DNA of 64,000 nt from Microbacterium sp. (GTDB lineage: Bacteria; Actinomycetota; Actinomycetes; Actinomycetales; Microbacteriaceae), in the NCBI RefSeq assembly GCF_052102115.1, contig NZ_JBQDVP010000007.1, positions 1,605 to 65,604 of the forward strand. Reading direction: 5' to 3'. Under the pieces are notes generated by a model, which worked only from the letters and a program-made list of their open reading frames with translations, was not told where the DNA came from and did no database searches. A program made the position numbers and the translations under genes. Every line of letters begins with the position of its first letter. Position 1 is the first letter of the stretch. This document shows, in pieces, positions 37,994 to 61,014 of this stretch.

Positions 37994-37995
37994 GC

Positions 37996-38024
37996 CGATT
38001 GTTCCGATTCTCGGATTATTCCGA
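37996..38024 (+). repeat. Left terminal inverted repeat CGATTGTTCCGATTCTCGGATTATTCCGA
   Basis: Exact reverse complement of 60957-60985 (29/29). Confidence 0.95.
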
Positions 38025-38215
38025 TCGCAGCGTGAACTGCCCTCGCCGGCGTGGCGAGTCAATCGACGGGCTCGGGATAACGAGCTGCTGTCGTTCGCGA
38101 GCGGAGCCCCGAGTGGCTATGCGTCCTCGCCCCTCGTACCCAGGACGAATACAGGGTGATGCCGCGCTCCGTTTGCAGTCGTCATCCGGCCTGGGCGTGA
38201 CCATCTCGGTCCTGC

Positions 38216-38507
38216 CGAGGTGTCTCAAAACCAACGATGAGTACATTCATCTGGCGCGTAGGATCCGCCCGGATGGCGGGGATCGATAAGGAGGTCGGCT
38301 ACCGATTCCTGCGTGACCGGTACCTCGAGCTGCGTCGTAGCGGCCTGAGCACCGGTGACGCGGTCGATGCGCTCGGGTTCCGTTCGAGTCGCGTGCCGGA
38401 CTGAGAAGCGTTGGTCGGGCGTGATGATCGCCATCATCTGCGGGTCGATCCATCACGAGAGCAGGTGTTCTGGGCAGCGTTCGAGTCCGGGGCGGACTGG
38501 TCCCAAG
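38216..38507 (+). mobile_element. Probable IS30-family left-end remnant (truncated N-terminal HTH region with a stop/frameshift)
   Basis: ARMAGIDKEVGYRFLR HTH-like segment. REQVFWAAFESGADWSQA resembles RVQFWVAIAAGKKTREA of the intact IS30 transposase at 61499-62896. Confidence 0.45.
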
Positions 38508-39303
38508 CGCCTCGACATCGGTTCGTACCCGCCTATGCAGTCGCGCCCGTGGATCGAGGAGCACGACAAGATGTTCCGCTGGTACGACTACTGGATCAAG
38601 GGCATCGACAACGGGATCATGGACGAGCCCGCGCTCAATGTTTTCGTAGAGGGAACGCGCGAGGTCGTCGGCGGCGCGCAGTGGCCGCCGAAGGACGTCG
38701 AGTACCGCTCGCTGTACCTGCGCCCGCGCGGCAAGCTGTCGACGGAGCCGGAGTCGATGACCGCGGAGCACGTCGCTGCGGACGGCTTCTACCAGGCGCC
38801 GCTCACGGTGACCGACAAGGTCGAGAAGCTCATCTGGTCGACGCCCGTGTTCGAAGAGGCGACCGAGCTGATCGGCACCGGCGCGGCGCACGTGTTCGCC
38901 GAGATCGACCAGGACGACACGAATTTCATCCTGCGGCTGTGGGACGAGGCCCCGAAGGCAAGCGCCAGCTGCTGACCACCGGTTTCTCAAGGCGTCGCAC
39001 CGCGAACTCGACACCGAACGCACCGCCGAGGGCAACCCGTGCCACCCGCAAACGCGCGCGGTGCCGGTCGAGCCTGGTGCGATCGAGGGGTACGTGCTGC
39101 GGGTCTACCCGTTCGCGGCGGTGTTGCTGCCCGGCCACCGGCTGACCGTCGAGCTGTCGAACAACGAGCCCTTCGTAGACGAGCACAACTCGCTGCTGCC
39201 GCCCGACGCGTTCCACCTGCCCGTTGGGCGACCGGTGACCCACAAGGTGTACCGTGACGCGCGGCATCCGTCTCGCCTCGTGCTGCCGTTCACAAAGGGC
39301 TGA
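38505..39303 (+). pseudogene. CocE/NonD-family hydrolase, C-terminal fragment with two frameshifts
   Basis: RWYDYWIKGIDNG...WPP...D.DDTNFILRL, then after shifts near 38953 and 38985 LKASHRELD...PVEPG...GHRL.VELS...PSRLVLP. Confidence 0.75.
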
Positions 39304-39333
39304 GTCCCCGCTTCTTTGAATTGTCTCGCGAAA

Positions 39334-39351
39334 CATGTATGGTGATACATG
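39334..39351. promoter_or_regulatory. Putative PadR operator CATGTAT-GGTG-ATACATG
   Basis: 7-4-7 perfect palindrome containing ATGT-N8-ACAT, upstream of the SDR operon. Confidence 0.7.
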
Positions 39352-39386
39352 GTTTGATCGTGAGATCCGATGCGAGGAGTTGTCGA

Positions 39387-40127
39387 ATGCCGGAGAACGA
39401 AGCCAAGGTCGCGTTGATCGTCGGTGGGACCGGCGGAATCGGTGGTGAGACTGCGCGCCGATTGTCGGCAGCGGGCTGGCGCACCGTCATCACGGGTTCC
39501 CGTGAGCAGGCCGCGGGCGATGCGATCGCCGCCGACCTGCCCGGGTCTCACTACGTGCGCGCCGATATGGGTGATGCGGCGTCATCGTCGGTCGTCGTCG
39601 ACGCCGCGGTGGCGGCGTTCGGCCGCCTCGACGCGCTCGTGTACACCGCCGGTGCCACGGCGAAGATCCCGCATTCCGATCTCGCCGCCGTTACCGACGA
39701 CGTGTGGGAGCGCATCCTCACGCACAACATCGTCGCCATCTGGCGCACGATCCTCGCGGCCCAGCCGCACCTGCGCGCCAACGGCGACGGGGCGATCGTC
39801 GTCACGGGCGCGCTGGCGGGCGTTCACGTCGGCGGCAGCAGCATCCCCTATGCGGTCAGCAAGGCGGGCCTGCACCACCTGGTGAAGCTGCTCGGGCCCG
39901 TGCTCGCCCCGGAGGTGCGGATCAACGCCGTCGCCCCAGGCCTGGTCGAGACGCCCTGGACGAGCGATCCGGCGTGGGAGCCGCTCTACCAGTTCTGGCG
40001 CGAGAAGGCGCCGCTGGCCCGCGTCGGCGAGCCCGAGGACGTCGCAGAGGTCGTCCAGTCGCTCATCGAGTGGAAGTACGTCACCGGACGCACGATCGTC
40101 GTCGACGGTGGATTCTCGCTGGTCTGA
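39387..40127 (+). CDS. Short-chain dehydrogenase/reductase
   Basis: VGGTGGIG, YAVSK and NAVAPG motifs. Confidence 0.85.
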   Translation: MPENEAKVALIVGGTGGIGGETARRLSAAGWRTVITGSREQAAGDAIAADLPGSHYVRADMGDAASSSVVVDAAVAAFGRLDALVYTAGATAKIPHSDLAAVTDDVWERILTHNIVAIWRTILAAQPHLRANGDGAIVVTGALAGVHVGGSSIPYAVSKAGLHHLVKLLGPVLAPEVRINAVAPGLVETPWTSDPAWEPLYQFWREKAPLARVGEPEDVAEVVQSLIEWKYVTGRTIVVDGGFSLV

Positions 40128-40150
40128 ATCGAAGAAGGAGCACAACCCAG

Positions 40151-40684
40151 ATGGCCGAACACAACGTCACCCTCTCGGGCGCGGCGCCCGCGCCGACGAC
40201 CAGGAGGTTCCGCCGGCTCGTCACCGGTCTGGACGAGAGCGGCAAGGCCGTCTTCGTCTCAGACGGCGAGAGCCCCTCGGTGCAGGTCGTCGCGAACACG
40301 CCGACGTTCGTCGTCACGAACTTCTGGCAGCACGCCGAGGTGCCCGTCGACAACAACGCCCCGCTCGACGACGGCGTGAGCGGACCGGTGAGCCTCAACC
40401 CTCCCGCCGGCGGATCGGTCTTCCGCATCGTCGAGTTCCCGCCGGACTCGGACTGGTCGGATCGGCCGGACGGCCCGTCCGACCAGGTGCACGCGACACC
40501 GTCGCTCGACTACGCGCTCGTGATCGAGGGCGACGTCTGGGCCGTGCTCGACGGTGAGGAGCGCGAGATGCACCCCGGAGACGTGCTGATCCAGCGGGGC
40601 ACGCGCCACGCCTGGTCCAACCGCACCCAGAAAGCCGCACTCGTCGCCTTCACGCTCATCGGCGGCACCGCCGTCCAGGACTGA
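40151..40684 (+). CDS. Cupin domain protein
   Basis: RRLVTGLDESGKAV N-terminus; VHATPSLDYALV.EG and IQRGTRHAWSN cupin motifs. Confidence 0.8.
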   Translation: MAEHNVTLSGAAPAPTTRRFRRLVTGLDESGKAVFVSDGESPSVQVVANTPTFVVTNFWQHAEVPVDNNAPLDDGVSGPVSLNPPAGGSVFRIVEFPPDSDWSDRPDGPSDQVHATPSLDYALVIEGDVWAVLDGEEREMHPGDVLIQRGTRHAWSNRTQKAALVAFTLIGGTAVQD

Positions 40685-40704
40685 ACCCCGAAAGGAATCG
40701 CATC

Positions 40705-41634
40705 ATGGCCACAATCATCGGCAACATCAGCAGCTCCCACTCTCCGTTGTGGAACCTCAAGCCCGATCCCGAGCCGGGCAACCCCGGTGCGGAGTTCGTG
40801 TCGTACATCGCGAAGGCCCGTGAGATCGTCGAACGGCTCGCGCCCGACGCGATCGTGATCTTCGGCCCCGACCACGCGCGCGGCGTCTTCTACGATCTGC
40901 TCCCCGCCTTCAGCATTGGCGTGGAACGCGTCGTGGGCGCCGGCGACTACTTCACCCCCGACGGCGAGCTGCCGGTCGCGACGCAGCTGGGCATGGACAT
41001 CTTCCAAGGCGTGACCGCCCGCGGCTTCGACCCCGCGATCTCGCTCGACCTGAGGATCGACCACGGGCTCACCCAGGTGTACCAGCGACTGAACCCCGCC
41101 ATCGACATCCCGATCGTGCCGATCATCGTGAACTCCGGCACCTCGCCGCTGCCGACCTTCGCCCGCAGTTACGCGTTCGGCCAGGCCGTCGGCGCAGCCA
41201 TCGCCCAGAGCGACCTCGACGCCCGCGTCCTCGTCATCGGCTCGGGCGGCCTGTCGCACTGGCCGAACTCGATCGATGCCTTCGACACGTCGATCACTCC
41301 GGAGTGGCGCGACTTCCTGATCCACGGGCGCAACCAGGTCGAGGAGCGCGAGGCAGGACGCCAGGCCACCGCCCTCAAGCTCGCCGAGGGCGAAGCGTCC
41401 GGTGAGGTCAACGAGGAGTGGGATCGCGACATCCTGGAGCGGATCCAGGCCGACCCGAGCGTGCTCGGCCGCCTCGACGAGGAGAATATCGAGGTCACCG
41501 CGGGCCCCGGCGCGGGCGAGCTGCGCACGTGGGCGGCCGCCGCCGGCGCCTGGGGCGGATCCATCGCGTGGACCGGGTACGAGCCCGTGCACCGCTGGAT
41601 CACCGGCATGGGCGTCGTGTCGAGCGAGCAGTAG
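40705..41634 (+). CDS. LigB-superfamily extradiol dioxygenase (MhpB-like)
   Basis: SHSP, FGPDH, IDHG, GSGGLSH and ELRTW motifs. Confidence 0.82.
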   Translation: MATIIGNISSSHSPLWNLKPDPEPGNPGAEFVSYIAKAREIVERLAPDAIVIFGPDHARGVFYDLLPAFSIGVERVVGAGDYFTPDGELPVATQLGMDIFQGVTARGFDPAISLDLRIDHGLTQVYQRLNPAIDIPIVPIIVNSGTSPLPTFARSYAFGQAVGAAIAQSDLDARVLVIGSGGLSHWPNSIDAFDTSITPEWRDFLIHGRNQVEEREAGRQATALKLAEGEASGEVNEEWDRDILERIQADPSVLGRLDEENIEVTAGPGAGELRTWAAAAGAWGGSIAWTGYEPVHRWITGMGVVSSEQ

Positions 41635-41642
41635 GGGTCACG

Positions 41643-42506
41643 ATGCCGACCCTGGGAACGACCGAATACCGCACGCCCGCATTCTTCGGCCTCGAGGACC
41701 GATGGATCGAGACCGCGCCGGGTGAGACGACGCACTACCACGAGGCGGGGGAGGGGCTGCCCGTCGTCTTCCTGCACGGATCCGGCACCGGGGTCTCCGC
41801 CGCAGCCAACTGGTGGCGGACCCTTCCCGCGGTGAGCGGTCGGGTGCGGGCGATCGCCCCCGATCTGATCGGGTGGGGAGCCACCGTGCAGCCCGACACC
41901 GCCGCTTTCGGCATCCGGGAGTGGGGGGAGCACGCGCTCCGCCTGCTCGACGCCCTAGGGATCGAGCAGGCCTGGTTCGCGGGCAACTCGCTCGGAGGCT
42001 GGATCGCGCTGCAACTCGCACTCGACCATCCCGACCGGCTGCGGGGGATCGTGTCGATGGGCACCGGTGGTGCGATCGTCAAGACCGCCGCGATCGCGCA
42101 GCACCTCGATCCCGACATCTCGACCGAAGGCCTCAGGAACGCCTTCGGCAAGTTCGTCACCGACCCGTCGATGCTCGAGGACGACATGATCGCGGCCAGG
42201 CAGCAGATCGCCGAGTACGAGGTGAGCACCGGCCGGCTCGCCCGGGTCATGGCGGCGCGCGAACGGGATCGCCATGACCTGCCGCTGCGCCCCGAGCAGT
42301 TGGCGCGGCTGGCGTTGCCGGTGCTGCTCGTCCACGGCAAGCAGGATGTGGTGATCCCCGCCGAACGCACGTGGGAGCTCGCCGGGCAGATCCCGACCGC
42401 CGATGCGCTGGTGCTCAACGGCTGCGGGCACTGGTCGATGATCGAGCGCGCGAACGTGTTCAACCGCGCGCTCGTGGACTTCGTGACCGGCGCATGGCAG
42501 TGCTGA
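41643..42506 (+). CDS. Meta-cleavage product hydrolase (MhpC/BphD-like alpha/beta hydrolase)
   Basis: HGSGTG, GNSLGG nucleophile, HGKQD and CGHW motifs. Confidence 0.82.
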   Translation: MPTLGTTEYRTPAFFGLEDRWIETAPGETTHYHEAGEGLPVVFLHGSGTGVSAAANWWRTLPAVSGRVRAIAPDLIGWGATVQPDTAAFGIREWGEHALRLLDALGIEQAWFAGNSLGGWIALQLALDHPDRLRGIVSMGTGGAIVKTAAIAQHLDPDISTEGLRNAFGKFVTDPSMLEDDMIAARQQIAEYEVSTGRLARVMAARERDRHDLPLRPEQLARLALPVLLVHGKQDVVIPAERTWELAGQIPTADALVLNGCGHWSMIERANVFNRALVDFVTGAWQC

Positions 42507-42538
42507 GCCGCGCCGCGCGGCTGCCCTAGGATCCGAGC

Positions 42539-43228
42539 ATGTCTCTCGAGCACGTCATTCTCGGCTGGCTGAGCACCGGGCCGGGGTCGGGGTACGATCT
42601 CGTGCGCGCGATGGATTTCGGCGTCAACTGGTTCTGGTCGGCACCGCACAGTCAGATCTACCCGAAGCTGAGAGACCTCGAAGAGCGCGGTCTCGTCGAG
42701 TCGGCTCCGACCGTCGTCGGCGAACGACTGGAGAAGCGCATCTACTCGATCACCGAGGAGGGCCGCCGCGCGGTCGACTCCTGGGCGGGCGGGCCGCCGT
42801 CGTACCCGGCCAATCGCGACGTCGAGCGGATCAAGCTCATCTTCGGAGACACCGGAGACCTCAAGGCACTGCGCGTCCATTTCGAACGGCACCACGAGCA
42901 CTACCGGCAGCGCCGCGACGCCATGCGCGCCTTCCTCGACGAAGTCGACGGCCGCCGCCATCGGCGTATCGAGCACCGGATCGCCAGCCGACCCACCGAG
43001 GCGCACGGCGAACTGACCCTGGCCGTTCGCGAACTCGCCTATCGCGGCGACATCGCCCGTGCCGAGAACGAGATGTCGTGGGCCCGTGATGCCCTGGAAT
43101 GGCTGGATCGCTTCGAGGAGAAATGGGGCGTATTGAACGGTGTTCTCCCGCTGGATGGATCAGCGACACCGCCTTCGGAGACAACGGTGGCGATGATGCC
43201 GCGGATCTCTCCGGATCCGTTCCATTGA
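42539..43228 (+). CDS. PadR family regulator
   Basis: LEHVILGWL...SGYDL...HSQIYPKL..LE...YSITEEG. Confidence 0.88.
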   Translation: MSLEHVILGWLSTGPGSGYDLVRAMDFGVNWFWSAPHSQIYPKLRDLEERGLVESAPTVVGERLEKRIYSITEEGRRAVDSWAGGPPSYPANRDVERIKLIFGDTGDLKALRVHFERHHEHYRQRRDAMRAFLDEVDGRRHRRIEHRIASRPTEAHGELTLAVRELAYRGDIARAENEMSWARDALEWLDRFEEKWGVLNGVLPLDGSATPPSETTVAMMPRISPDPFH

Positions 43229-43234
43229 ATGGAA
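43220..43234. promoter_or_regulatory. Putative IclR operator TTCCATTGAATGGAA
   Basis: 7-1-7 palindrome upstream of mhpF; near-identical copy at 46771-46785. Confidence 0.65.
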
Positions 43235-43306
43235 TCCCGTAGCCAGTCGCTTGAAAGCCGTCGTTACAGTCATCCCAAACGCACGTCGAGCGCGAGAGGG
43301 AAACGC

Positions 43307-44254
43307 ATGGCGAAGACGAAGGTCGCGATCATCGGATCGGGGAACATCGGCACGGATCTCATGTTCAAGGTGATGCGCCTGAGCGAGGTCCTCGAGATGG
43401 GGGCGATGGTCGGCATCGATCCCGACTCGGACGGGCTGGCGCGGGCCGCACGGCTCGGCATCCCCACGACCGCTCAAGGTGTGGAAGGCCTCATCGGTCT
43501 GCCAGGGTTCGACGAGATCGAGATCGTCTTCGACGCCACCAGCGCAGGCGCGCACCGGCGCAACGCCGCGGCGCTCGAGCCGTACGGCAAGCTCATGGTG
43601 GACCTGACCCCGGCCGCCATCGGTCCGTACGTGGTGCCCGTGGCCAACCTCGACGAGCACCTGGATGCGACGAACGTGAACATGGTCACGTGCGGCGGCC
43701 AGGCGACGATCCCGATCGTGAGCGCGGTCAGCTCGGTCGTCCCGGTCCACTACGCCGAGATCGTCGCCTCGATCGCGTCGAAGTCGGCCGGACCGGGCAC
43801 GCGTGCGAACATCGACGAGTTCACCGAGACCACCTCGGCCGCGATCGAGCAGGTCGGCGGCGCTGCACGAGGCAAAGCCATCATCATCCTCAACCCGGCG
43901 GAGCCGCCGATGATCATGCGCGACACCGTGCTCCTCATCACCGACCGCCTGAGCGACCAGGAGCGTGGCGAGGTCGAAGCCGCGGTCGAGGCCCGGGTTG
44001 CGGCCGTGGCCGAGTACGTTCCGGGCTACCGCCTGAAGCAGGTCGTGCAGTTCAGCGACCAGGACTCCACAGTCGATCTGCTCGTGCCCGAAGCTCAGCG
44101 CACCGGCGCGTACACGAAGATCTCGGTCTTCCTCGAGGTCGAAGGCGCTGCCATGTATCTTCCGGCGTACGCCGGAAACCTCGACATCATGACCTCCGCC
44201 GCGGTGCGTACCGCCGAGCGGATGGTCTCCACGCGGAAGGCGGTCGTCGCATGA
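43307..44254 (+). CDS. mhpF: Acetaldehyde dehydrogenase (acylating)
   Basis: [34 protein letters not shown] and YAGNLDIMT motifs. Confidence 0.93.
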
Positions 44255-45255
44255 CGAAGATCTACCTGCAGGACGTCACCCTGCGCGACGGGATGCACGC
44301 GATCTCGCATCGCATCGAGCCTGCCAAGGCGGCTGAGATCGCCCGGGCTCTCGACGCGGCGGGCGTCGACGCGATCGAAGTCGCCCACGGCGACGGGCTG
44401 GCCGGATCCAGCCTGACGTACGGTGCCGGCTCGAACACCAACTGGGAGTGGATCGAGGCGGTCGCGGCCGCCGTCGAGAAGGCGGTCCTCACCACGTTGC
44501 TCCTTCCTGGCATCGGCACGATCTCCGACCTCCGCCGCGCGTACGACCTCGGGATCCGGTCGGTGCGGGTCGCCACGCACTGCACCGAAGCGGATGTCTC
44601 GCAGCAACACATCGAGACCGCCAAGTCGTGGGGCATGGACGTCTCGGGCTTTCTCATGATGTCGCACCTGAACGATCCGGCCGGCCTGGCGGCACAGGCC
44701 AAGCTGATGGAGTCCTACGGCGCGGACTGCGTCTACGTCACCGACTCGGCGGGCCGGCTCACCATGGACGGCGTGCGCGAGCGCGTCCGTGCCTACCGGG
44801 ACGTGCTGGACCCGAAGACCCAGATCGGGATCCATGCCCACCAGAACCTGTCGCTCGCGGTGGCGAACTCCGTGATCGCTGTCGAAGCCGGCGCGACCCG
44901 GGTGGACGCCTCGCTCGCCGGTCACGGCGCCGGCGCGGGCAACACGCCGATCGAGCCGTTCGTCGCCGTCGCGAAGCTGACGGGGTGGGATGTCGCGGCC
45001 GACGTCTTCGCACTGCAGGACGCGGCGGACGACCTCGTGCGCCCGCTGCACGACCGTCCGGTGCAGGTCGACCGCGAGACCCTCACGCTCGGCTACGCCG
45101 GCGTGTACTCGAGCTTCCTGCGTCACGCCGAGCGCGTCGGCGCGCAGTACGGCCTCGACGCGCGCGATCTGCTCGTGACCGTCGGCGAGCGGAAGCTCAT
45201 CGGCGGGCAGGAGGACATGATCGAAGACATCGCGCTGGACGCCTCCCGCGCCTGA
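44251..45255 (+). CDS. mhpE: 4-hydroxy-2-oxovalerate aldolase
   Basis: [31 protein letters not shown] and GGQEDMI motifs; ATGA-coupled to mhpF. Confidence 0.93.
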
Positions 45256-45281
45256 CCTTCGGCGCCGAGCGCCTCCTCGGA

Positions 45282-45926
45282 TCAGTCGGTGAGATACCGG
45301 TAGATCCGGGGAAGGAGCTCGTCGGCCCGCTCGGCCCACCAGTCGATCTCGTCCTGCGGCAGCGGCCGGGGGGTTCCGGCGGCCAGCGCATCGAGCGCGA
45401 GGCGCGCGCTGCGTTCGAGCACCCACATCCGTGCGACCGCCTGTGCCGCATCCGTTCCCACGGTGACCGCCCCATTGCCGCGGAGGATGATCGCGCCAGA
45501 AGCGCCCGCGGCCTCGGCCAGCGCGTCTGCCGTGGCGCGGTCGCGCACCAGGCGCGAGCTCTCATGGATGTGCACGCCGTGCAGCATCGCGCCGTGGCCG
45601 CCGAGGACGGGCAGTGCGATGCCCAGGGCGCTGAATGCTGCGACCGCACGTGGCTGTGCGCGCACGATCGATCCGACCTCGGGCCGCGCGGCGGCCAGCG
45701 CAAGGTGCATCCATCCCTCCAGCGGCACGCCCGCGGGCAGCTCGTCGCTCGCGACGTCCACCCTGACCGGCGGGGCTTCGCCGGCCCGGCCGAGGGGCAC
45801 CGGTGGAGTGATCAGCAGGGAGCGTTCCCCCGCGCGGACGGACACGTGTCCGAATGCGTCGCTCAAGCCGGCCGCGGCCACGGCCGAGGCGGCCGTGCGC
45901 AGCTGTGTGGTCAGATCGTCGTTCAT
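45282..45926 (-). CDS. Class II aldolase/adducin-family protein
   Basis: FGHVSVR, E.WMH, ILRGNG motifs; some His ligands appear replaced (AQP, GNG). Confidence 0.7.
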   Translation of the reverse strand: MNDDLTTQLRTAASAVAAAGLSDAFGHVSVRAGERSLLITPPVPLGRAGEAPPVRVDVASDELPAGVPLEGWMHLALAAARPEVGSIVRAQPRAVAAFSALGIALPVLGGHGAMLHGVHIHESSRLVRDRATADALAEAAGASGAIILRGNGAVTVGTDAAQAVARMWVLERSARLALDALAAGTPRPLPQDEIDWWAERADELLPRIYRYLTD

Positions 45927-45983
45927 ACGCCTCCATCGTCCGGGCTAGGGTAACCGGAAACGCCGGAACCGCCGAGACGGATG

Positions 45984-46742
45984 TCAATCAGCGGAACCGA
46001 GTTGCGGAAGGCGTCGCACCTCGTCGCTGAGGGCCGTGGCCATGCCGCGCACCATCGGGATCGAACGGTCGACGTCGAGTCGCTCGCTCCAGCCCGAGAC
46101 CGAGATCGCGGCGACCGGGCTGCTTCGCCCGCTGCCGATGATCGGTGCCGCCACGCACGAGATTCCCGGCCCGGACTCCTCGATCTCGGTCGCGTAGCCC
46201 TTGCCGTGGATCTCGGCGAGGTCCTGCCGCAGCCGGGCTGCATCCGTGATCGTGTTGGGCCCGATCTTCCAGAGACCGCGCGCCTCCACCTGGTCGAGCA
46301 CCTCGGGCGGAGAGAAGGCGAGCAGGGCCTTGCCGACACCGGTGGCGAATGCCGGCAGCCGGCCTCCCACCCGGGACGGAAGACGCGGCGAGGTGGACGA
46401 GTGCAGGATCTCGATGTACACCACGGTCGTCTCCTCGAGCACCGCGAGGTGCACCGTGTTGCCGGTCGCGCGCCGCAGCTCCGCCATTCGGGGCAGCGCG
46501 AGCAGCCGCAGGCTCCGCGGCCGGGCGGCTTGCTGTCCGAGCTCGAAGATGCGGATGCCGAGCGAGAGCGACGAGCCGTGGCGTTCGAGCCAGCCGTAGT
46601 CGACGAGTTCGTTGGTGATGCGGGATGCCGTCGATTTGGCGAGCCCGGTGAGGCGCGAGATCTCGCCGAGGGTGATGGCGGGCGTGCCGTCGCTGAAGCA
46701 GTCGAGCACCATGCTCACGCGGCCGATCATCGAGTCCGGCAT
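45984..46742 (-). CDS. IclR family regulator
   Basis: ITLGEISRLTGLAKSTASR HTH; ATGVGKALLA and ISCVAAPI motifs. Start could be GTG 46790. Confidence 0.9.
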   Translation of the reverse strand: MPDSMIGRVSMVLDCFSDGTPAITLGEISRLTGLAKSTASRITNELVDYGWLERHGSSLSLGIRIFELGQQAARPRSLRLLALPRMAELRRATGNTVHLAVLEETTVVYIEILHSSTSPRLPSRVGGRLPAFATGVGKALLAFSPPEVLDQVEARGLWKIGPNTITDAARLRQDLAEIHGKGYATEIEESGPGISCVAAPIIGSGRSSPVAAISVSGWSERLDVDRSIPMVRGMATALSDEVRRLPQLGSAD

Positions 46743-52830: not shown

Positions 52831-52837
52831 CAACGAC

Positions 52838-52878
52838 GTGTGTCCGGGGCGGCACCGCGCCGCCCCGGACACACTTTT
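52838..52878 (+). terminator. Intrinsic terminator-like hairpin between the SBP and ALDH genes
   Basis: GTGTGTCCGGGGCGGC / GCCGCCCCGGACACAC followed by TTTT. Confidence 0.7.
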
Positions 52879-52915
52879 CCGCACGATAGAGTCCGCACGA
52901 TAGAGAAGGAATCCC

Positions 52916-54349
52916 ATGACAGAGCGTTATGGCCACATCATCGATGGCCACGAGGTCGAGTCGACACTCGGCCACCAGTTCCAGAGCATCGATCCCTATG
53001 ACCAGAAGCCGTGGGCCGAAGTGGCATTCGGCGGCGCTCCCGATGTCGACCGCGCGGTGGCCGCAGCCCGGCACGCGTTCGACGAGGGTCCCTGGCCGCG
53101 CATGACGCACGAAGAGCGACGCTCGCTGATCCACCGGTTCGCGGATCTCATCATCGAGAACGGCGCAGAGCTCGCCCTCGCCGACACGCGCGACATGGGC
53201 AAGCCCTACGCGCAGGCGCTCGGCAACGACGTGCCCCGGACGGCCGCCAACTTCCGCTTCTTCGCCGATCACGCCGCGCTCGCCACCGGTGACGTGTATC
53301 CGCGCGACGATCGCCACCACCTGTACTCCAGCTACGACCCGGCGGGCGTCGTCGCGGCGATCGCGCCGTGGAACTTCCCCATGATGCTCGAGAGCTGGAA
53401 GGTCGCCCCCGCCCTGGCGTGGGGCAACACCGTCGTGCTCAAGCCCGCCGAGGACTCCCCGGCGTCGGCCACGATCCTCGCGCGGCTCGCGCTCGAAGCC
53501 GGCATTCCGGCGGGCGTCTTCAACGTCGTGCATGGCTACGGCCCGGACTCCGCAGGTCAGGCCCTGACCGAGAGCCCCTTCATCGACCGCATCACCTTCA
53601 CGGGCGAGTCCAACACGGGGCGCGTCATCGCCGCTGCGGCGGCGAAGAACCTCGTGCCGGTCAGCCTCGAGCTCGGCGGTAAGGGCGCCAACATCGTGTT
53701 CGACGACGCCGACATCGACAACGCGGTGGAGTGGTCGATCAATGCCGCGTTCACCAACACCGGTCAGGTGTGTCTGGCGGGTTCGCGGCTGTACGTGCAG
53801 CGCGGCATCCTGCCCGAGTTCAAGCGGCGTTTCGTCGCCGCCGCCGAAGCGATGGTCGTGGGCGACCCCAAGGACGATTCCACCCAGATCGGTCCACTGT
53901 CGTCGGACGAGCACTACACCAAGGTGCGTCGCTACTTCGATAGCATCGAGCAGGCCGGCGGTTCGATCGACACCGGTCGGCTCGGCGACGGCTGGACCAT
54001 CACGCCCACGGTCATCTCGGGTCTGTCCGAAGAAGCCCCGCACCTTCGCGAAGAGATCTTCGGTCCCATCGTGTCGATGACCCCGTTCGACACCGTCGAC
54101 GAGGCGGTGCGGCTCGTGAACGCGTCGCCCTTCGGCCTGAACGCGATGATGTTCACCGAGAACCTGTCGACGGCCCACAAGGTCGCCGGCCGCCTCCGCG
54201 TCGGCACAGTGTGGGTGAACTGCTTCTTCATCCGCGACCTGCGCGCTCCGTTCGGCGGTGCGGGCGATTCGGGTGTCGGGCGAGAAGGCGGCAACTTCAG
54301 CCGCGAGTTCTTCACCGAGCCCAAGGCCGTCGTCATGCAGCTGAACTGA
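52916..54349 (+). CDS. 2-hydroxymuconic semialdehyde dehydrogenase-like aldehyde dehydrogenase
   Basis: RTAANFRFFAD, PWNFP, FTGES.TG, ELGGK, GQVCLAGSR and IRDLRAPFGG motifs. Confidence 0.82.
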   Translation: MTERYGHIIDGHEVESTLGHQFQSIDPYDQKPWAEVAFGGAPDVDRAVAAARHAFDEGPWPRMTHEERRSLIHRFADLIIENGAELALADTRDMGKPYAQALGNDVPRTAANFRFFADHAALATGDVYPRDDRHHLYSSYDPAGVVAAIAPWNFPMMLESWKVAPALAWGNTVVLKPAEDSPASATILARLALEAGIPAGVFNVVHGYGPDSAGQALTESPFIDRITFTGESNTGRVIAAAAAKNLVPVSLELGGKGANIVFDDADIDNAVEWSINAAFTNTGQVCLAGSRLYVQRGILPEFKRRFVAAAEAMVVGDPKDDSTQIGPLSSDEHYTKVRRYFDSIEQAGGSIDTGRLGDGWTITPTVISGLSEEAPHLREEIFGPIVSMTPFDTVDEAVRLVNASPFGLNAMMFTENLSTAHKVAGRLRVGTVWVNCFFIRDLRAPFGGAGDSGVGREGGNFSREFFTEPKAVVMQLN

Positions 54350-54377
54350 TCCACCCGACCTCGCAAGGAGAAACGAC

Positions 54378-54575
54378 ATGCCGCTCATCACCGTAAACAT
54401 CGCCGAGGGTCGTTCCGAGGCGGACATCCGCAAGCTCATGGCCGCGCTGCACACCGCGGCGCACGAGTCGATCGGCGCACCGGAGCCGAGCATCCGCGTG
54501 ATCGTGAACGAGGTCGCCACGGACCGGTGGCTGAGCGGCGGGCAGACGCTCGCCGAGAAGGCTGCCCGCAGCTGA
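54378..54575 (+). CDS. 4-oxalocrotonate tautomerase family protein
   Basis: 65 aa with catalytic Pro1 (MPLITV) and GRS motif. Confidence 0.85.
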   Translation: MPLITVNIAEGRSEADIRKLMAALHTAAHESIGAPEPSIRVIVNEVATDRWLSGGQTLAEKAARS

Positions 54576-54601
54576 CCAGACGCCTGCGCGGGCGGGCCGC
54601 C

Positions 54602-55564
54602 TCACACTTCGAGCGACGCCTCCAGGGGTGGGGTGGCCCACGAGTGGAACGTGGCCGGCACCGGGGTGCCCCACGCCGTGCCGCGACCGTCGGCCTCGGT
54701 GGTCCACGTCACCGGCTCCCAGTCCGGCTGGAAGATGTGGATGCCGTCGGTGAAGATCTCGACGCGGTTGCCGCCTGGCTCGATGACGTACACGAAGAAG
54801 CCCTGCGTGCGCGAGTGCTTCGCCGGGCCGAACTCGACCGGAGTGCCCAGCTGGAGGAACATGTCCGCTGCGCGGATCACGTCCATGTGACTCTCGACCG
54901 CGTAGGCGAGGTGGTGCAGGCGTCCCTCTGTGGGCGAGGGCTCCCTTGTCAGCGCGAGGTCGTGCGCCTTCGTCATGACACTCAGCCACGCGCCGACCTC
55001 GTCGCCGCCGGCCGGAGTCAGCCGTTCGCGCAGCTTGAAGCCGAGCGTCTCTTGCTGAAACGCGCTCGCCGCTGCCACATCGGGCACCAGCACGTTGATG
55101 TGGTCGATGTGCGCGGCCGCCGCCCCGTGCGGAATGAACCGTTGTGCCTGGTTCGGCAGGTAGGGCTCCTCGCCGGGCGGGGCCACGTACTTCTCGGTCT
55201 CGAAGTAGACCTCCTGCACGTGGCCGCCGATGCCGGCGAACCTGTAGGCGGCGCCGTGGCCGAGATCGCCGTCGTGCCATTCGCCCTCGATGCCGCGCGC
55301 CTCCAGAGCGTCCACGGGGCGCTGGAGCGCCTGCGGACTCGTCGTGCGCCATGCCATGTGGCCCAGGCCCGGGTGCGTGGTCGCGGTCAGCCGCAGGGAC
55401 GTGAGAACGTCGTCGTTCCAGGCACGCAGGTACACGGCATCCTTCGTCTCACCGACGGGGAACAGTCCGTAGGTGTCGGTGAAGAATCGTGCGCTCGCCT
55501 CGAGATCCGGCGTCAGCAACTCGACGTGGCCGAGCTGGGCCACGTCGTAGATGGGCTCGGACAT
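54602..55564 (-). CDS. Catechol 2,3-dioxygenase (VOC type I)
   Basis: LGHVEL, IDHINV, AHDLAL, LHHLAY, GPAKH and EPGGNRVEIF motifs. Confidence 0.88.
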   Translation of the reverse strand: MSEPIYDVAQLGHVELLTPDLEASARFFTDTYGLFPVGETKDAVYLRAWNDDVLTSLRLTATTHPGLGHMAWRTTSPQALQRPVDALEARGIEGEWHDGDLGHGAAYRFAGIGGHVQEVYFETEKYVAPPGEEPYLPNQAQRFIPHGAAAAHIDHINVLVPDVAAASAFQQETLGFKLRERLTPAGGDEVGAWLSVMTKAHDLALTREPSPTEGRLHHLAYAVESHMDVIRAADMFLQLGTPVEFGPAKHSRTQGFFVYVIEPGGNRVEIFTDGIHIFQPDWEPVTWTTEADGRGTAWGTPVPATFHSWATPPLEASLEV

Positions 55565-55565
55565 G

Positions 55566-56507
55566 TCAGACGCGTGTCTGCGCCGCTTCGGTCAGCGCCT
55601 GAACGGCCGCGGCATCCGCGTCGTTGTCGGCGGTGAGGATCTGACGCTGAGTCGACGGCTTCTGCGAGCTGCCGCCCCACATGTCGATCGCACCGAACAT
55701 CGTCGGATCGAAGGTGCGGGGGATCCAGGCGTCGTCGTCGTGAATCAGCCGCACGTTCCACGAGTACTCGTACGTGAAGCCCTCGGGACCCTTGAAGTAG
55801 AGGAAGACGGCGCCCGACTGCGGGTGGCGGCCGGGCCCCTGCTCGATCTCGACGTCGTGCTCCTTGAGGAAGTTCCAGTTGCGGAAGATCGCGTCGATCT
55901 CGTCGACCTGGAAGTTCATGTGGCAGAGGCCCGGCTCATCGCCCTGGAAGACCGCCAGAGTGTGGTGCACCGGGTTGAAGCGCATGAGCGCTGCGTTGTT
56001 CTGCACCCAGTCCGACACCTTGATGTTGAAGTTTTCGGTCCAGAACTCCGCCGCCTTGTAGATGTCTTTCGCGTCGACGCACAAGTGCCCGAACTCGGTG
56101 ATACCGCTCGATGCGCGCGTCAGCTCCAGGAACGACGGGTCGTGCATCTGCCCGATCACGAGGTCGAACTTGTTGCCCCAGGGGTCATCGAATGAGATGA
56201 AGTCCGTCACGCGGCGGCTGCGCGCTTCTTCGTCGGTGCCGCGATGCACGCGGATGCCGATGGATTCGAGGTGTTTGGCGGCATTGTGCAGCGCCTTGTC
56301 GTCGCGCAGGACGAGGCCGCTCGAGAGCACTCCGCTCTCGCCCTCGACGAACGCGAGGCAGTGCTGACGCTTGTCGGCGCGCAGGTAGTGGACACCGTCG
56401 TCGGCGCCCTGATACTTCATTCCGACGATGTCGCGGGCGAAGCCGACGGCGGTATCGACGTCCTTCGCGCCGCTTCGGACATAGCCGATGTCAACGAGTT
56501 CGATCAT
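55566..56507 (-). CDS. BphC-like VOC extradiol dioxygenase
   Basis: FGHL, HHTLA, CHMNFQV, GPGRH and FTYEYSW ligand pattern. Confidence 0.78.
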   Translation of the reverse strand: MIELVDIGYVRSGAKDVDTAVGFARDIVGMKYQGADDGVHYLRADKRQHCLAFVEGESGVLSSGLVLRDDKALHNAAKHLESIGIRVHRGTDEEARSRRVTDFISFDDPWGNKFDLVIGQMHDPSFLELTRASSGITEFGHLCVDAKDIYKAAEFWTENFNIKVSDWVQNNAALMRFNPVHHTLAVFQGDEPGLCHMNFQVDEIDAIFRNWNFLKEHDVEIEQGPGRHPQSGAVFLYFKGPEGFTYEYSWNVRLIHDDDAWIPRTFDPTMFGAIDMWGGSSQKPSTQRQILTADNDADAAAVQALTEAAQTRV

Positions 56508-56546
56508 TTCAATTGCTCCTTCGTCGGAGGTGGCGTACTTTCAGTA

Positions 56547-56564
56547 TAGGTATACATATACATA
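56547..56564. promoter_or_regulatory. Second putative PadR operator TAGGTAT-ACAT-ATACATA
   Basis: Same 7-4-7 geometry and half-sites as 39334-39351; lies between the divergent dioxygenase and padR genes. Confidence 0.65.
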
Positions 56565-56592
56565 TGTCACAAGTGATACTAGGGTGGCACTC

Positions 56593-57162
56593 GTGTCCCT
56601 GCGCTTCGCGATTCTCGGCATCCTCGAGGCCACGCCCATGACGGGGTACGAGCTGGGTCAGCGGTTCGCCTCGAGTGCACGATGGGTGTGGTCGGCTCCC
56701 CGGAGCCAGATCTATCCGCTGCTGGCCAAGCTCGAAGCCGACGGGCTCATCGCGGGGGAGCACGCCATCGTCGATGGGCGTGCCCAGCGCCGCTATGGCA
56801 TCACCGGCGACGGATGCCGCGAACTGCGCCGGTGGGTGAGCGAAGCGCACGACCTGCCGCCGGTGCGCGACCCGATGCTGCTGCACGCACTGTTCCTTGA
56901 CATCGTCGGCGTCTCCGAAGCCGAGGAGGTGCTCCGAGGCGAATGGGCGGCCGAGCGCGCGCGGATCGTCGAGTGGGAGGCACACCGCGATGCGCTCGCA
57001 GCGGGGAAGACGCCGGTGATCCGGGCCCGGCTGCGCAATCGCGATCCGAGCGAGCACGAGCGGATCACCCGCATCAAGGCCGCGGCCTTCAACGGTCTGG
57101 TCGAGACCGGTCGTGCGCGGCTGCGGTGGCTAGAGTCGATGATCGAAGCGGTCCGCGACTGA
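56593..57162 (+). CDS. PadR family regulator
   Basis: LRFAILGIL...TGYEL...RSQIYPLL.KLE...YGITGDG. Confidence 0.88.
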   Translation: MSLRFAILGILEATPMTGYELGQRFASSARWVWSAPRSQIYPLLAKLEADGLIAGEHAIVDGRAQRRYGITGDGCRELRRWVSEAHDLPPVRDPMLLHALFLDIVGVSEAEEVLRGEWAAERARIVEWEAHRDALAAGKTPVIRARLRNRDPSEHERITRIKAAAFNGLVETGRARLRWLESMIEAVRD

Positions 57163-57218
57163 CGTCCCCGGCGCCGAGCCAGCCGTGCCGGATCGGGCCG
57201 AAGCCTTGTTGCGCCGGG

Positions 57219-57597
57219 TCAGGCAGGGGCGCGCCAGAGGCTGCGGCGCTCGATGAACTCCGCCGTCATGGTCGAGGCGTGCTCTTCGGGCGCCTGCGCG
57301 TCGAGCATGCGGATCGCCATCGTGACGCCGAGCTCGCCCAGCCGTTCGAGCGGTGGTCGGATCGTGGTGAGCGCCGGCATCATGAAGTCCGCACCGAACA
57401 CATCGTCGTTGCCGCAGACGCTCAGCTCGTCCGGAACCGAGACGCCGAGCCGCTGGAGTTCGAGGATCAGCCCGATGGCGCGGAGGTCGTTGAACGCGAC
57501 CACCAGCGTCGCACGCGAGGCGAGCACCGGCGCGGCCGCCTCCCGCCCGCCGTCCAGCCCAAACGGGAAGGCTCCGAGCGTCTCGATCCGCAGCCCG
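57219..57597 (-). pseudogene. LacI-family regulator, C-terminal fragment
   Basis: VVAFNDLRAIG, SVCGNDD and LTTIRPP motifs; no HTH; begins immediately after the ritC stop. Confidence 0.8.
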
Positions 57598-58626
57598 TCA
57601 GGTAGTGAGTCCGCAGAGTCGCCGGATGATGTCGTCTCGGTCGTGCCACATCGGTACGGCCGGTGGACTGGCGGTGCCGACGGTGGTCTTGGCGAGAGCT
57701 CGACGTTTCATCTCGGTGTCGGCGTGGGCGTAGATGAGTGTGGTCTCGGGATCCGTGTGCCCGAGCCATTCGGTGATCAGCGCCAGGGGCATGCCCGCTT
57801 GGTAGAGGTGCATGGCACGGGAGTGGCGCAGCATGTGGGGGTGTACCTTCTCCGGGATCTCCGTGCAGCTCTCGCGGGCGGTGCTGGCATGATGGCGAAC
57901 GAATCGGCCGACGTTGTCGTCGGACATGCGTGTCTTGCGGTGACCGTGGATGGTGAAGAACAACGGCTGGTCAGCGGTGGGATCGTGGTGGAACACCTCG
58001 GTGTAGCGGCGATAGTGGGCAGCGGTCTCGCTGGTGATAGGTAGCCGCCGCGGTTTCGCACCCTTCCCGACCAGGTCGACGGTGAGTCGCCTGAGATCGA
58101 TATCGCCGACGGTCAGGGCGAGCATCTCAGCGTCGCGGGCCGCGACGTCATACATCAAGATCATGAAGAACTGGTCGCGAAGGCCGGTCTTCGTGGCGTG
58201 ATCGGGCGCGGCAAGCAGCGCCGTGACGGCGCCGGTCGTCAGATAGTGGACGGATGGGGTCGCTGTGGTCTTCAGCTGCGGGACGCCGTTGACGTCAGCC
58301 AGGTGGATGGCGAGGATCGGTTCGGCGGTAGCGGCGTAGCGGAAGAAGGACCGGATGCAGGCGAGCCGTTGGTTGTAGGTCGTCGCGGTCCACGAACGCG
58401 TTGCCCTCATGTGGTCGAGGAATTCGATGATGCAGGCCCGGTTAATGATGGAGAACGTCACGTGCTCGAGTGGGACCCCGCGGGTCTCCGCGACGTATCC
58501 CAGGAGCATATTCCAGGTGTGGCGGCACGCGGTGATCGTGTGCGGGCTGACTCCGCGTTGCCGAGGCATGAAAACGGTGAACCACTCGCGCAGGTGCCGG
58601 TAGAAGTCGTCGGTGGGATTGGTCAT
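57598..58626 (-). CDS. Tyrosine recombinase, third gene of the RIT trio (RitC-like)
   Basis: AAR.AE, GKG.K.R, HPHMLRHS and WLGH....TLIY catalytic residues are intact. Confidence 0.9.
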   Translation of the reverse strand: MTNPTDDFYRHLREWFTVFMPRQRGVSPHTITACRHTWNMLLGYVAETRGVPLEHVTFSIINRACIIEFLDHMRATRSWTATTYNQRLACIRSFFRYAATAEPILAIHLADVNGVPQLKTTATPSVHYLTTGAVTALLAAPDHATKTGLRDQFFMILMYDVAARDAEMLALTVGDIDLRRLTVDLVGKGAKPRRLPITSETAAHYRRYTEVFHHDPTADQPLFFTIHGHRKTRMSDDNVGRFVRHHASTARESCTEIPEKVHPHMLRHSRAMHLYQAGMPLALITEWLGHTDPETTLIYAHADTEMKRRALAKTTVGTASPPAVPMWHDRDDIIRRLCGLTT

Positions 58627-59561
58627 GATGTCACTTCCGGGATGATGCCCGCCGCGCTCGTCAGGCCGGTTGCGGCCAGGCGCTCGGGAAGCAGATGGAT
58701 GTAGTAGGCAGTGGTCGAGTAGGTGTTGTGACCCATGTAGGCCGACAGGTACGGCAGCCAGACATTGAGGTCGCGGCCCTCCTCGACCCATCGCGTCAGG
58801 GTGCGTGTGGCGTAGTTGTGGCGCAGCGTGTACGGCGTGGAACCGGGTGCGACGCCGCCCGCACGATCACGGCAGCGGTGATAGTGGGCCGTGATCCAGC
58901 GGCCCGGGTAGGGCTGTTCTGGGTGGTCCTCGAAGAAGAACTCCCGGCCGGGCCGGCGCAGATCGGCGAGCTCGTCAAACCGGGCCAACAGGTCGGCCAT
59001 GCCGGTGTCCACCGGGACACGGCGGTCCTTGTTCCGTTTCGACTGCTCGATCGTCACGATGGCGCCGCCGAGGTCGACGTTCCGGCGGCGGAGCAGTCGG
59101 GCTTCTTGGGGCCGCAGCCCGCAGCCCAGCATCAGTCGGAAGAGCACCGGGATCGTGTACTCACGGAATGGGCTGGTCCCGGAGGGGGTGACCAAGTCGG
59201 TAGCTCCGAAGAAGGCGGCCAGTTCGCTGTCACTGAAGATGTGGGGCAGGTTCCTGGTGGGCTGTCGGATCCACTGCGCGGGCAGCACGAATGCTTCCAC
59301 GCCGACCAGGTGCAGGTACCTGCCGAACTCGCGAATCGCGTGGCCCTTGTACGCAGGCCATTCAACCCTCGCGCCTTCTTGACACCAGGCGGTGACCAGT
59401 TCCCGGGTCAGGATCGGCTCGCCAGGCGGGTGTGCGACGCAATACCGGTCGAAGCTGAGCATCGGATACGCGAGTGTGCGGCGGGAGTAGCCGAGAGCTG
59501 TGCGCCACTGGAGCATCGCCTCGATGTGAGTGGCGAAGCCGCTGCTGAACGTGATGGTCAT
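58623..59561 (-). CDS. Tyrosine recombinase, second gene of the RIT trio (RitB-like)
   Basis: CGLRPQE, SK.NKDR, YTLRHNYA and LSAYMGH....TAYY motifs; ATGA overlaps on both sides. Confidence 0.9.
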   Translation of the reverse strand: MTITFSSGFATHIEAMLQWRTALGYSRRTLAYPMLSFDRYCVAHPPGEPILTRELVTAWCQEGARVEWPAYKGHAIREFGRYLHLVGVEAFVLPAQWIRQPTRNLPHIFSDSELAAFFGATDLVTPSGTSPFREYTIPVLFRLMLGCGLRPQEARLLRRRNVDLGGAIVTIEQSKRNKDRRVPVDTGMADLLARFDELADLRRPGREFFFEDHPEQPYPGRWITAHYHRCRDRAGGVAPGSTPYTLRHNYATRTLTRWVEEGRDLNVWLPYLSAYMGHNTYSTTAYYIHLLPERLAATGLTSAAGIIPEVTS

Positions 59562-60780
59562 CGCGGGGCGCCCTTCGCTAGGGCGAAGCTGTCGAGAGGG
59601 AGGGCGCAGTCACGGAGGAATTCGTCGGCCAGCGCGATGTAGCGTCGAGAGGAGTCAATGCTGGCGTGACCGAGCACCTGCGCCGTCAGCGCCAGCTCGG
59701 CTCCGGACTCGATCAGGCGGGTGCCCGTCGTGCGCCGCAGCGCGTGGGACGTCTTACCGTCATGTGCGCGGTGCGACACGCCTTGGCAAGCCACCGGCGC
59801 ATGATGAGAGCCCCCGTTGGCCCGGTCAGCTTCGTGAACGGCGCGTAGAGACGGACGAATACCTCGGGCGCATCGCTATCGGGTCTTCCGTGCAGGAGCC
59901 AGTCCGCGATCGCGTTGCCGGCGTCCGCCGACAGTGGCAGTGTCAACGGCGCCGAGGTCTTATTCTGCACCAGGCGGATCTCATCGTTGTGCCAGTCGAT
60001 CTGGTTGAGCCGGAGTGACACGATGTCGCAGCAGCGAAGCCCGGTCGACAGCGCCAACCGGACCATCGCGTAGTCCCTCTTCCCGCGGGGGGTTGCGGTC
60101 TCGATCGCGCTGACGAGCCGGTCAGCCTCCTCGGGGGTGAAGCAGGGTAGCGCACGCGTCCGTCTCGGCCCGACCCGCGCCAGCAGGGCATCGACCTTCA
60201 ATTCGGTCAGCCGCTGATGGTTCAGGAACTGGAGGAACCGCTTGATGGCCCACACCGTGTTTCCCATGCCCGATGCGTGACGCGGCCTCGCTTCGACGAG
60301 AAATGCTCGGACATCGTCGACAGAGACCGATTCGAGCGAACGGCCGACGCGGTCCAGATAACCCATGAATCCGCGGGCTTCACTGACCACATCGCGCACC
60401 GAGCCAGGCGCGAGTTCCTTCTGCACGTGCTGAGCGAAGCCGCTGAGAACCACCGTGGCAGACGCGCTCAGGCTCGATGCTGGCCTTCGTCGTTTCCATA
60501 CGACCGCGCCGGTCCGCTGGAACTCCAGCATCAGCCGGGCAATCTTCTCCAAGTTCGATCGCAGCCCAGCGTGGATCTCACCTCGGCGCACTCGATCATC
60601 CATTGCCGCGAGGAACTCCTCCACGGCCCGCTCGGTCAGCTGATCGATTCCTCGGCTGTGCGAGAACCGCATCACGGTCCAGCAGCAGCTCCGGTAGTAC
60701 CGGATCGAGCCGGGCGCCAGGCCGATGCGCGTGGCCTCTGCCAACACGCCCTCGGCAACCCAAGATGGTTCGTCATTCAC
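59558..60780 (-). pseudogene. Tyrosine recombinase, first gene of the RIT trio (RitA-like), frameshifted
   Basis: TGLRCCDI and QNKT are in one frame, while SHALRRT and VLGH....RRY are in another; shift near 59779-59790. Confidence 0.8.
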
Positions 60781-60956
60781 GACCCAACCTCCTGTCGGAC
60801 GGCGTCGCGGCCGCTCCAAAGACGGTCGCGACACGCACCACAATCCCGCGGAAAGGTGCCGACGACTACCCGTTCCGTCGGCTTCTGAGGCGCATGCGGA
60901 TTATTCCGAGCCAGACAGGTGGCTGCACCATGCCCCAGGAGCCCGTCAGGCAGTCG

Positions 60957-60985
60957 TCGGAATAATCCGAGAATCGGAACAATCG
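60957..60985 (-). repeat. Right terminal inverted repeat
   Basis: TCGGAATAATCCGAGAATCGGAACAATCG, exact complement of the left IR. Confidence 0.95.
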
Positions 60986-61014
60986 ACATTATGCCGAGGT
61001 CGGCATAACGTCGA
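60983..61014. repeat. Palindrome TCGAC-A-TTATGCCGA-GG-TCGGCATAA-C-GTCGA outside the right IR
   Basis: 14 of 15 arm positions are complementary; core motif resembles the IR motifs. Confidence 0.9.

Follow-up and report, generated by a model that had tools for sequence, protein, structure and literature searches.

The question raised by this locus is whether an element of the recombinase-in-trio (RIT) type can carry a large block of metabolic genes between its own ends. RITs are present in many phyla and are poorly understood; they were reportedly treated by Van Houdt et al. in 2009 and 2012 and by Ricker et al. in 2013, a division into RitA, RitB and RitC subgroups is said to come from Smyshlyaev et al. 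in 2021, and to our knowledge RIT movement has never been demonstrated experimentally. The DNA examined here, hereafter the window, is a 64-kb stretch of Microbacterium sp. (GCF_052102115.1, contig NZ_JBQDVP010000007.1, positions 1,605 to 65,604). A preliminary description had proposed that it contains a RIT enlarged by an island of aromatic catabolism, pointing to perfect 29-bp inverted repeats (IRs) about 23 kb apart, one of them about 180 bp upstream of three ATGA-coupled recombinase genes and the other about 19.6 kb beyond the last of these. RITs are described in the literature as three genes plus IRs, free of cargo (PMC3414803, PMC10214605), and the terminal IR has a flanking palindrome (PMC3414803). 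The analysis presented below leads us to consider it likely that window positions 37996-61011 are a member of the RIT family whose cargo is enclosed between its own two complete, symmetric ends.

A repeat search found one long inverted pair in the window (37996-38035 / 60946-60985), 40 nt in length and 88% complementary, whose outer 29 nt are perfect in both arms (37996-38024 / 60957-60985). With up to 6 substitutions allowed, these two sites are the only occurrences of the 29-mer in the whole host genome, a draft of 3.23 Mb in 123 contigs. The pair announced in the preliminary description is thus confirmed and unique, and its distances hold upon measurement: one perfect arm stops 177 nt short of the ritA start, on its upstream side, and the other arm is found 19,574 nt beyond the ritC stop. 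Both arms belong to a larger structure built from the box motif TTRTNCCGA, which has 8 matches in the window, every one of them at the two element ends. The layout is symmetric, 3+3(+2), with three boxes and the same 47-nt spacing at each end and an additional two that form the palindrome at 60989-61008. At the distal, ritC-side end, a further 11 nt are common to the elements of Microbacterium sp. Gd 4-13 (locus L001) and M. flavescens (L002), blastn homology reaching 38093/38092. The ends in the window are thus complete RIT ends, and the cargo (38094-57597) occupies the stretch from the ritC stop to the inner box of the distal end.

The canonical arrangement was established by a RitC search, which returned 80 loci; both ends could be located in 35 relatives. 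In 25 of these 35, the IR of the window bounds units of 3.42-3.55 kb, its distal copy being found 80-115 nt after ritC. The preliminary description had conceded that homologous trios with a different downstream IR would speak against its proposal, and here the relatives agree with it, as does the left end of the window with its family box and spacer. The hosts of the 25 canonical relatives belong to Actinomycetota, Burkholderiaceae (Pseudomonadota), Thermomicrobiales (Thermomicrobiota) and Lentisphaerota. In the canonical order, the ritC stop is followed by 2-8 nt, the box GTTATCCCGA, a spacer and the IR; in the window the same box, spacer and IR are displaced to the far end (38093-37996). The element therefore displays the ends of a RIT, namely a perfect 29-nt IR (about 28-34 bp being expected of a RIT) of the same sequence as in the relatives and an adjoining palindrome, and departs from the compact, gene-free form of about 3.5 kb by its size and its approximately 20 cargo genes. 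Carriers of this RIT are rare: scanning for the IR identified 2 among 401 genomes of the family and about 3 among 301 of the genus. No other copy of the window cargo was found in these family- and genus-wide scans, where the carriers are too few.

The outer limits of the element were set by its target gene. When position 37995 is joined to 61012, the reading frame is kept and the resulting protein has one single YhcG_C match (1-148/157); the element is for this reason delimited as 37996-61011, or 23,016 bp. Unoccupied YhcG genes read TTCTTTGTCGACCTCCTG in this genome (contig C91) and TTCTATGTCGATCTTCTG in the same-genus genome G409. The target codons of the window element in YhcG are D-F-F-[AVI]|D-L-L-F-F, with GYCGAY as the core; these codons, in the relatives D-F-[FY]-x|D-L-L-F, are interrupted in L002-L005, L007-L009, L020, L024, L036, L057, L087/L088 and the Gd 4-13 copy. 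As judged from these sequence comparisons, integration is site-specific in YhcG/DUF1016 genes, at the site of canonical 3.5-kb relatives from three phyla. The palindrome of two inverted boxes stands on the YhcG-3' side in 11 YhcG-inserted elements (10 relatives and the window). The trio is oriented one way in seven of them and the opposite way in four, the side of the palindrome remaining constant. This constancy fits a near-symmetric circular joint (IR, palindrome, IR) with crossover on either side of the palindrome, and it equally fits an inversion of the inter-IR segment after insertion.

The data on the ends and on the target dispose of a chance repeat, in which the left IR would be unrelated to the trio and the gene cluster would be ordinary chromosome. 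The large distance between the arms, and nothing else, speaks for such a coincidence. The left arm nevertheless has the full three-box end of the family with its spacing and abuts the matching half of the target gene, and the observed number of boxes, 8 against about 1.5 expected by chance, was reached in 0 of 100 shuffles. This explanation, to which we give next to no credence, was rejected, the IR being a family terminus, the flanks a single YhcG gene and the boxes confined to the ends.

Two observations concern the target gene as such. In the window (37209-37620), YhcG also lacks the N-terminal two thirds of DUF1016_N and lies against a C-terminal TetR fragment encoded on the opposite strand (37209-37589); the RIT insertion was therefore preceded or accompanied by an older deletion. 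In a same-genus YhcG copy (L098, G409:C11:142675-143241), query residues 91-133 are missing, which is the stretch around the RIT target, and this gap could be the scar of an imprecise loss.

The trio itself is encoded on the minus strand by three Phage_integrase genes (Pfam), with ATGA overlaps at 59561-59558 and 58626-58623. These are adjacent tyrosine-recombinase genes in the order A-B-C, as in at least 30 homologous trios, and they overlap as is expected of a RIT (4-8 bp), and tblastn finds collinear homologues of RitA, RitB and RitC in canonical 3.5-kb loci, the C. metallidurans CH34 archetype lying outside the comparison. The RitC tree places the window within the RIT family; RitC identity amounts to 93% with L001, 88% with L002 and 72-73% with canonical Burkholderiaceae RITs. 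No further Rit homologue above 32% identity was found in the host genome. The R...HxxR...Y set is kept in RitB (LRHNYAT...YYIH) and RitC (LRHSRAM...LIYAH) and is not wholly in frame in RitA. Alignment with L001, L002 and L003 disclosed a 4-bp deletion in ritA near 59782, overlooked in the preliminary description, by which HxxR and the catalytic Tyr are shifted from the frame; the gene remains open as far as 59713. The region of the deletion is free of indels in contigs from four independent food-fermentation metagenome runs, and because these four assemblies agree the frameshift is real. With RitA frameshifted, the trio does not consist of three catalytically complete recombinases, and the element in this genome is therefore probably a fixed, non-autonomous and immobile relic.

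The cargo contains no transposase or integrase gene according to Pfam and NCBIfam. Three extradiol dioxygenases, one of LigB type and two of VOC type, are encoded in it, as are a meta-cleavage-product hydrolase, a hydratase, a decarboxylase and a tautomerase, together with a semialdehyde dehydrogenase, an acylating acetaldehyde dehydrogenase and a 4-hydroxy-2-oxovalerate aldolase, so that, as had been claimed, every function of a meta-cleavage (dmp/xyl/mhp-type) lower pathway is represented between the IRs. Two SDRs, a cupin protein, an ABC importer and IclR and PadR regulators are also present, and a 55-aa open reading frame (ORF) at 38247-38405 has no Pfam match. The cargo is one of aromatic breakdown, but the word pollutant was an overstatement: the cargo has no ring-hydroxylating oxygenase, and scores above the equivalog cut-offs were obtained for two enzymes alone, the aldolase and the acetaldehyde dehydrogenase, the other enzymes being family-level matches. 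The missing parts of the two edge pseudogenes (LacI and CocE/NonD) are nowhere in the host genome. The preliminary description had also considered that the cluster might occur at the same position in relatives devoid of IRs or of a RIT; it occurs in none of 24 genomes from the same genus and none of 16 from the same order, in which matches are limited to dmpFG-like genes at 71-77% identity. A megablast of the whole element against a plasmid collection gave dmpFG-like genes (72-78%) and distant rit genes, with no cargo-level relative. The absence of the edge-gene parts and of the cluster in relatives favours the import of a pre-assembled block. All the features are collected in the table.

Coordinates of the element, its cargo and its target gene in the window
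Feature	Position	Strand	Remarks
YhcG/DUF1016 gene, 5' half	37613-37995	+	Pfam DUF1016_N 92-137, YhcG_C 1-62/157
attL crossover region GCCGAT	37994-37999	.	CGA in common with attR region GTCGAC; read from sequence
Distal (ritC-side) RIT end, complete	37996-38093	+	29-nt terminal IR, boxes at 37999 and 38016, 47-nt spacer, inverted inner box 38072-38080
Cargo, 19.5 kb, about 20 genes	38094-57597	.	Pfam and NCBIfam
CocE/NonD-type hydrolase remnant, left cargo edge	38355-39303	+	PepX_C 1-124 (38355-38975) and 146-216 (39061-39303); N-terminally truncated, frameshifted
LigB-type extradiol dioxygenase	40705-41634	+	MhpB-like match, below equivalog cut-off
Meta-cleavage-product hydrolase	41631-42506	+	HsaD/BphD-like match, below equivalog cut-off
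Acetaldehyde dehydrogenase (acetylating) and 4-hydroxy-2-oxovalerate aldolase	43229-45255	+	TIGR03215 446 bits, TIGR03217 535 bits, above cut-off
2-oxopent-4-enoate hydratase-like and 4-oxalocrotonate decarboxylase-like genes	46870-48438	+	DmpE/HpaH and DmpH models below cut-off; Pfam FAA_hydrolase
ABC transporter (two permeases, ATPase), SDR, NMT1-type binding protein	48435-52830	+	Profile matches
2-hydroxymuconic-semialdehyde dehydrogenase-like gene	52916-54349	+	Family-level match
4-OT-type tautomerase	54378-54575	+	Pfam Tautomerase on identical gene in L101
Two VOC-type extradiol dioxygenases	54602-56507	-	One catechol 2,3-dioxygenase-like, the other a distant BphC relative
LacI-family regulator, C-terminal fragment	57219-57596	-	Peripla_BP_3 77-166/167; proximal cargo junction, frame runs to ritC stop
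ritC, 342 aa, intact	57598-58626	-	Phage_integrase 3-171/172
ritB, 312 aa, intact	58623-59561	-	Phage_integrase; ATGA overlap at each end
ritA, pseudogene	59558-60780	-	Phage_integrase match limited to 3-100/172
ritA-side end, complete	60901-60985	-	Inner box 60901-60909, 47-nt spacer, 29-nt IR with two boxes 60957-60985
Perfect 20-nt palindrome TTATGCCGA-GG-TCGGCATAA	60989-61008	.	Two inverted boxes, between IR and YhcG 3' half
YhcG/DUF1016 gene, 3' half	61012-61360	+	YhcG_C 60-149/157; in-frame join

Some food-metagenome contigs (L112, L115) contain island variants in which the meta-cleavage hydrolase (cf. window 41631-42506) is called as split or shortened ORFs, which suggests ongoing cargo decay. 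To the right of the island, a 91-aa ORF (63053-63328), a truncated extradiol dioxygenase, has a match to the LigB dioxygenase profile in its final 47 positions only; a relationship to the LigB gene of the cargo was considered and rejected, the two being unrelated upon comparison.

Cargo is also carried by the closest relatives of the element. The window, L001 and L002 form one clade of the RitC tree with a support of 95/92. The L001 element measures 9.3 kb from IR to IR and contains hydrolases, a TetR regulator and a NAD-binding protein, and the L002 element measures 10.1 kb and contains a cupin protein, a SulP permease and a phosphoketolase. The three cargos are mutually unrelated, tblastx of the L001 and L002 cargos against the window giving high-GC noise alone. 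Their position is nevertheless the same: the cargo starts at most about 25 nt from the ritC stop and ends at a common GAC(A/C)GCAGCTC followed by the inner box. In L001 and L002 the box motif is found on each side of the cargo. When metagenomes were scanned for the common distal junction motif GCAGCTCRTTATCCCGAGCC, two chance matches came up, with no Rit, YhcG or IR.

The Gd 4-13 element is informative with respect to mobility. Contig C16 of this genome (9,309 bp) runs exactly from IR to IR, and at either end it has an overlap of exactly 77 nt with two different contigs. A YhcG gene is restored from one pair of flanks and a P-type ATPase gene from the other; in the ATPase copy the palindrome is located at the opposite element end to that in the YhcG copy. 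This overlap pattern is that of a collapsed two-copy repeat, and the whole cargo-bearing 9.3-kb unit has therefore transposed. A further case comes from a separate RitC clade. In Microbacterium sp. USTB-Y (L091, 1163-19285), an 18.1-kb RIT splits a CMD-like gene at TTCTGC-CTCGAC-CTGCAC. Its cargo of 14.6 kb, on the ritA side, encodes an amidase, amidohydrolases, an enoyl-CoA hydratase, an acyl-CoA synthetase (CoA ligase) and an Opp-type transporter, and the GC content of the whole unit is 0.61-0.63 throughout versus 0.68-0.72 in the flanks, some 8 GC points lower. Taken with the window, L001 and L002, this case indicates that cargo-bearing RITs are recurrent in Microbacterium and have arisen at least twice. 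The search for compact and for loaded versions suggested in the preliminary description thus yielded both, the 25 canonical units and the three further elements with cargo. Its proposal of a cargo-carrying RIT is supported by these three, by the family IR at both ends and by the canonical YhcG target. Movement as one unit, which it had also proposed, is borne out for the sister element L001 with its two copies at two targets; for the single-copy, single-site element of the window it is not shown.

A mechanism compatible with this anatomy can be briefly outlined as follows. The Rit recombinases would join the two ends into a circular intermediate, the joint consisting of IR, about 3 nt, palindrome, about 3 nt and IR. 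One side of the joint palindrome would then recombine with the target core, and anything located between the two end-sets would be carried passively. For the Gd 4-13 element, the predicted circle joint reads ritA-IR, GC, GTTATTCCGAGGTCTGCATAAC, GT, distal IR. For the window element, the joint would connect 60985, the palindrome and 37996, and the predicted empty site is GACTTCTTCGCCGACCTGCTG.

We infer from the above that the 23-kb unit arrived as a unit, and several observations weigh against such an arrival or against a mobile element altogether. The ritA gene is frameshifted ahead of the catalytic residues. The island does not differ from its flanks in GC content. Its cargo is bordered by gene fragments, and the degenerate proximal box of L001 and L002 is missing here, so that later deletions must have occurred. 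All contigs in which identical genes could be read (23 of 23 for RitC, 23 of 23 for LigB) have the same neighbours, and no second copy, empty site or circle junction of the window element was seen in the genome and those public contigs. The two copies in Gd 4-13 were deduced from the logic of the assembly graph, not from reads. A rival history is growth in situ, in which a canonical 3.5-kb RIT inserted in YhcG in this lineage and unrelated recombination later placed 19.5 kb between ritC and the inner box, the 23-kb unit having never moved. The flanks look alike under either history, and truncated edge genes, a missing ritC-proximal box, uniform GC and one fixed location are all in its favour. 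Growth in situ lacks a local donor, however, since the genome lacks the other halves of LacI and CocE/NonD and the relatives lack the cluster. The three sister elements with cargo at the same nucleotide-level position and with a common distal junction argue instead for an inherited cargo-bearing architecture, and one of them exists as two whole copies. We therefore hold growth in situ to be unlikely.

In a composite origin, two RITs in two YhcG paralogues would have flanked a catabolic region, deletions having then removed one inner IR and the other trio. RITs can indeed be multi-copy and can nest in one another, and the box motif on both sides of the L001 and L002 cargos could be read in this way. 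At least two precise deletions would be required, whereas no trace of a second trio or of an inner IR is found: all the boxes of the window are at the two ends, the genome has no further Rit homologue above the identity level given earlier, and the two parts of YhcG complement each other as a single gene, their identity to the same homologues being similar. This very improbable origin was rejected. Among readings of how a RIT with cargo between its own ends came to be loaded, the inner box beside ritC might be an attI-like capture site at which the Rit recombinases integrate foreign circular DNA; RITs would then be gene-capture platforms whose cargo is exchanged between lineages. Capture of this kind would explain the unrelated cargo at one position in three sister elements and the box copies flanking the L001 and L002 cargos. 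The position of the cargo fits one ancestral insertion followed by cargo turnover equally well, and we regard the capture site as a speculative and decidedly doubtful proposal.

A number of observations were made in passing on the surroundings and on other RITs. The island is surrounded by ordinary chromosome with insertion sequence (IS) debris. Just to the right of the YhcG 3' half (61383-63000) stands what is left of an IS3-type transposase, its C-terminal part, which is itself split by an element of 1,451 bp; this element has perfect 25-bp IRs (61492-61516 / 62918-62942) and ORFs without Pfam match. At least five independent metagenome studies of food or food fermentation include runs with sequence near-identical to 57400-61100 (0.9-0.99 of sampled words), and a wide occurrence of the host lineage in this habitat follows. 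RITs nested in RITs were encountered in L014 (6444-13321), L017 (6422-13341) and L025 (573-5277), where a 3.5-kb RIT with an IR of the type GTATTACTCCGA is found within a rit gene of a more distant RIT. RITs of the same IR type in L010-L012, L016, L018 and L019 split a '...TYW|YLS...' motif resembling the catalytic-Tyr region of a tyrosine recombinase, and this subfamily may target recombinase genes. In L026 (10888-14971), ritC is interrupted by a 4-kb insert with its own tyrosine recombinase and an 815-aa protein without Pfam match.

The interest of the locus lies mainly in what its lineage reveals, the present copy being a decayed and fixed example. The literature gives the target specificity of RITs as not tested and their mechanism as unknown (PMC10214605, PMC5737581, PMC3414803). 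Three testable points emerge: the RIT subfamily of the window is site-specific, its target being one conserved block of codons in YhcG/DUF1016 genes of three phyla; a two-box palindrome stands on one side of the target whichever the direction of the trio; and RIT ends appear able to enclose 6-19.5 kb of metabolic genes while the unit as a whole still transposes, as supported by the two 9.3-kb copies and the 18-kb GC-distinct insertion. No description of an IR-bounded cargo RIT was found in the searchable literature, the RIT survey of Ricker et al. (2013) being outside its coverage. If confirmed, these properties would be relevant to the annotation of catabolic and other islands in Actinobacteria.

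Compared with known RITs, the element shares the overlapping tyrosine-recombinase genes in A-B-C order, the terminal IR of about 29 nt and the flanking palindrome, and differs by its length of 23 kb versus about 3.5 kb, by the 19.5 kb of metabolic cargo inside its ends and by its ritA pseudogene. The class 1 integron offers an analogy only: unrelated cargo occupies one fixed position beside the recombinase genes of sister elements, but there are no cassettes or attC sites here, the cargo is multi-gene with truncated edge genes, and capture at the inner box is speculative. GInts likewise display several tyrosine-recombinase-like genes at one island end, followed by variable cargo, and insert site-specifically (PMC5385486). 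They require the four genes ginABCD, including a non-recombinase fourth, and the accessible text mentions no RIT-type terminal IR (PMC5385486). As compared by description, they represent a different protein family; no fourth conserved gene exists in the window or in the canonical relatives, which have three genes between their ends, and here ritC is directly followed by the LacI fragment. Strand-biased circularizing elements (SEs) and Tn554 are also multi-recombinase integrative elements with cargo and target specificity (PMC10214605, PMC9345347). SEs, again compared by description, differ by their intA-tfp-intB genes plus a further gene, by a circle that is copied out with 6 bp of flank and by their restriction to Gammaproteobacteria (PMC10214605, PMC9345347), and Tn554 is set apart from the window element, by description, by its tnpABC genes. 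GInts, SEs and Tn554 are thus functional analogues, with several recombinases at one end and cargo, that belong to other families and have a fourth gene (PMC5385486, PMC10214605). If the present findings are confirmed, RITs would join them as multi-recombinase vehicles for adaptive genes.

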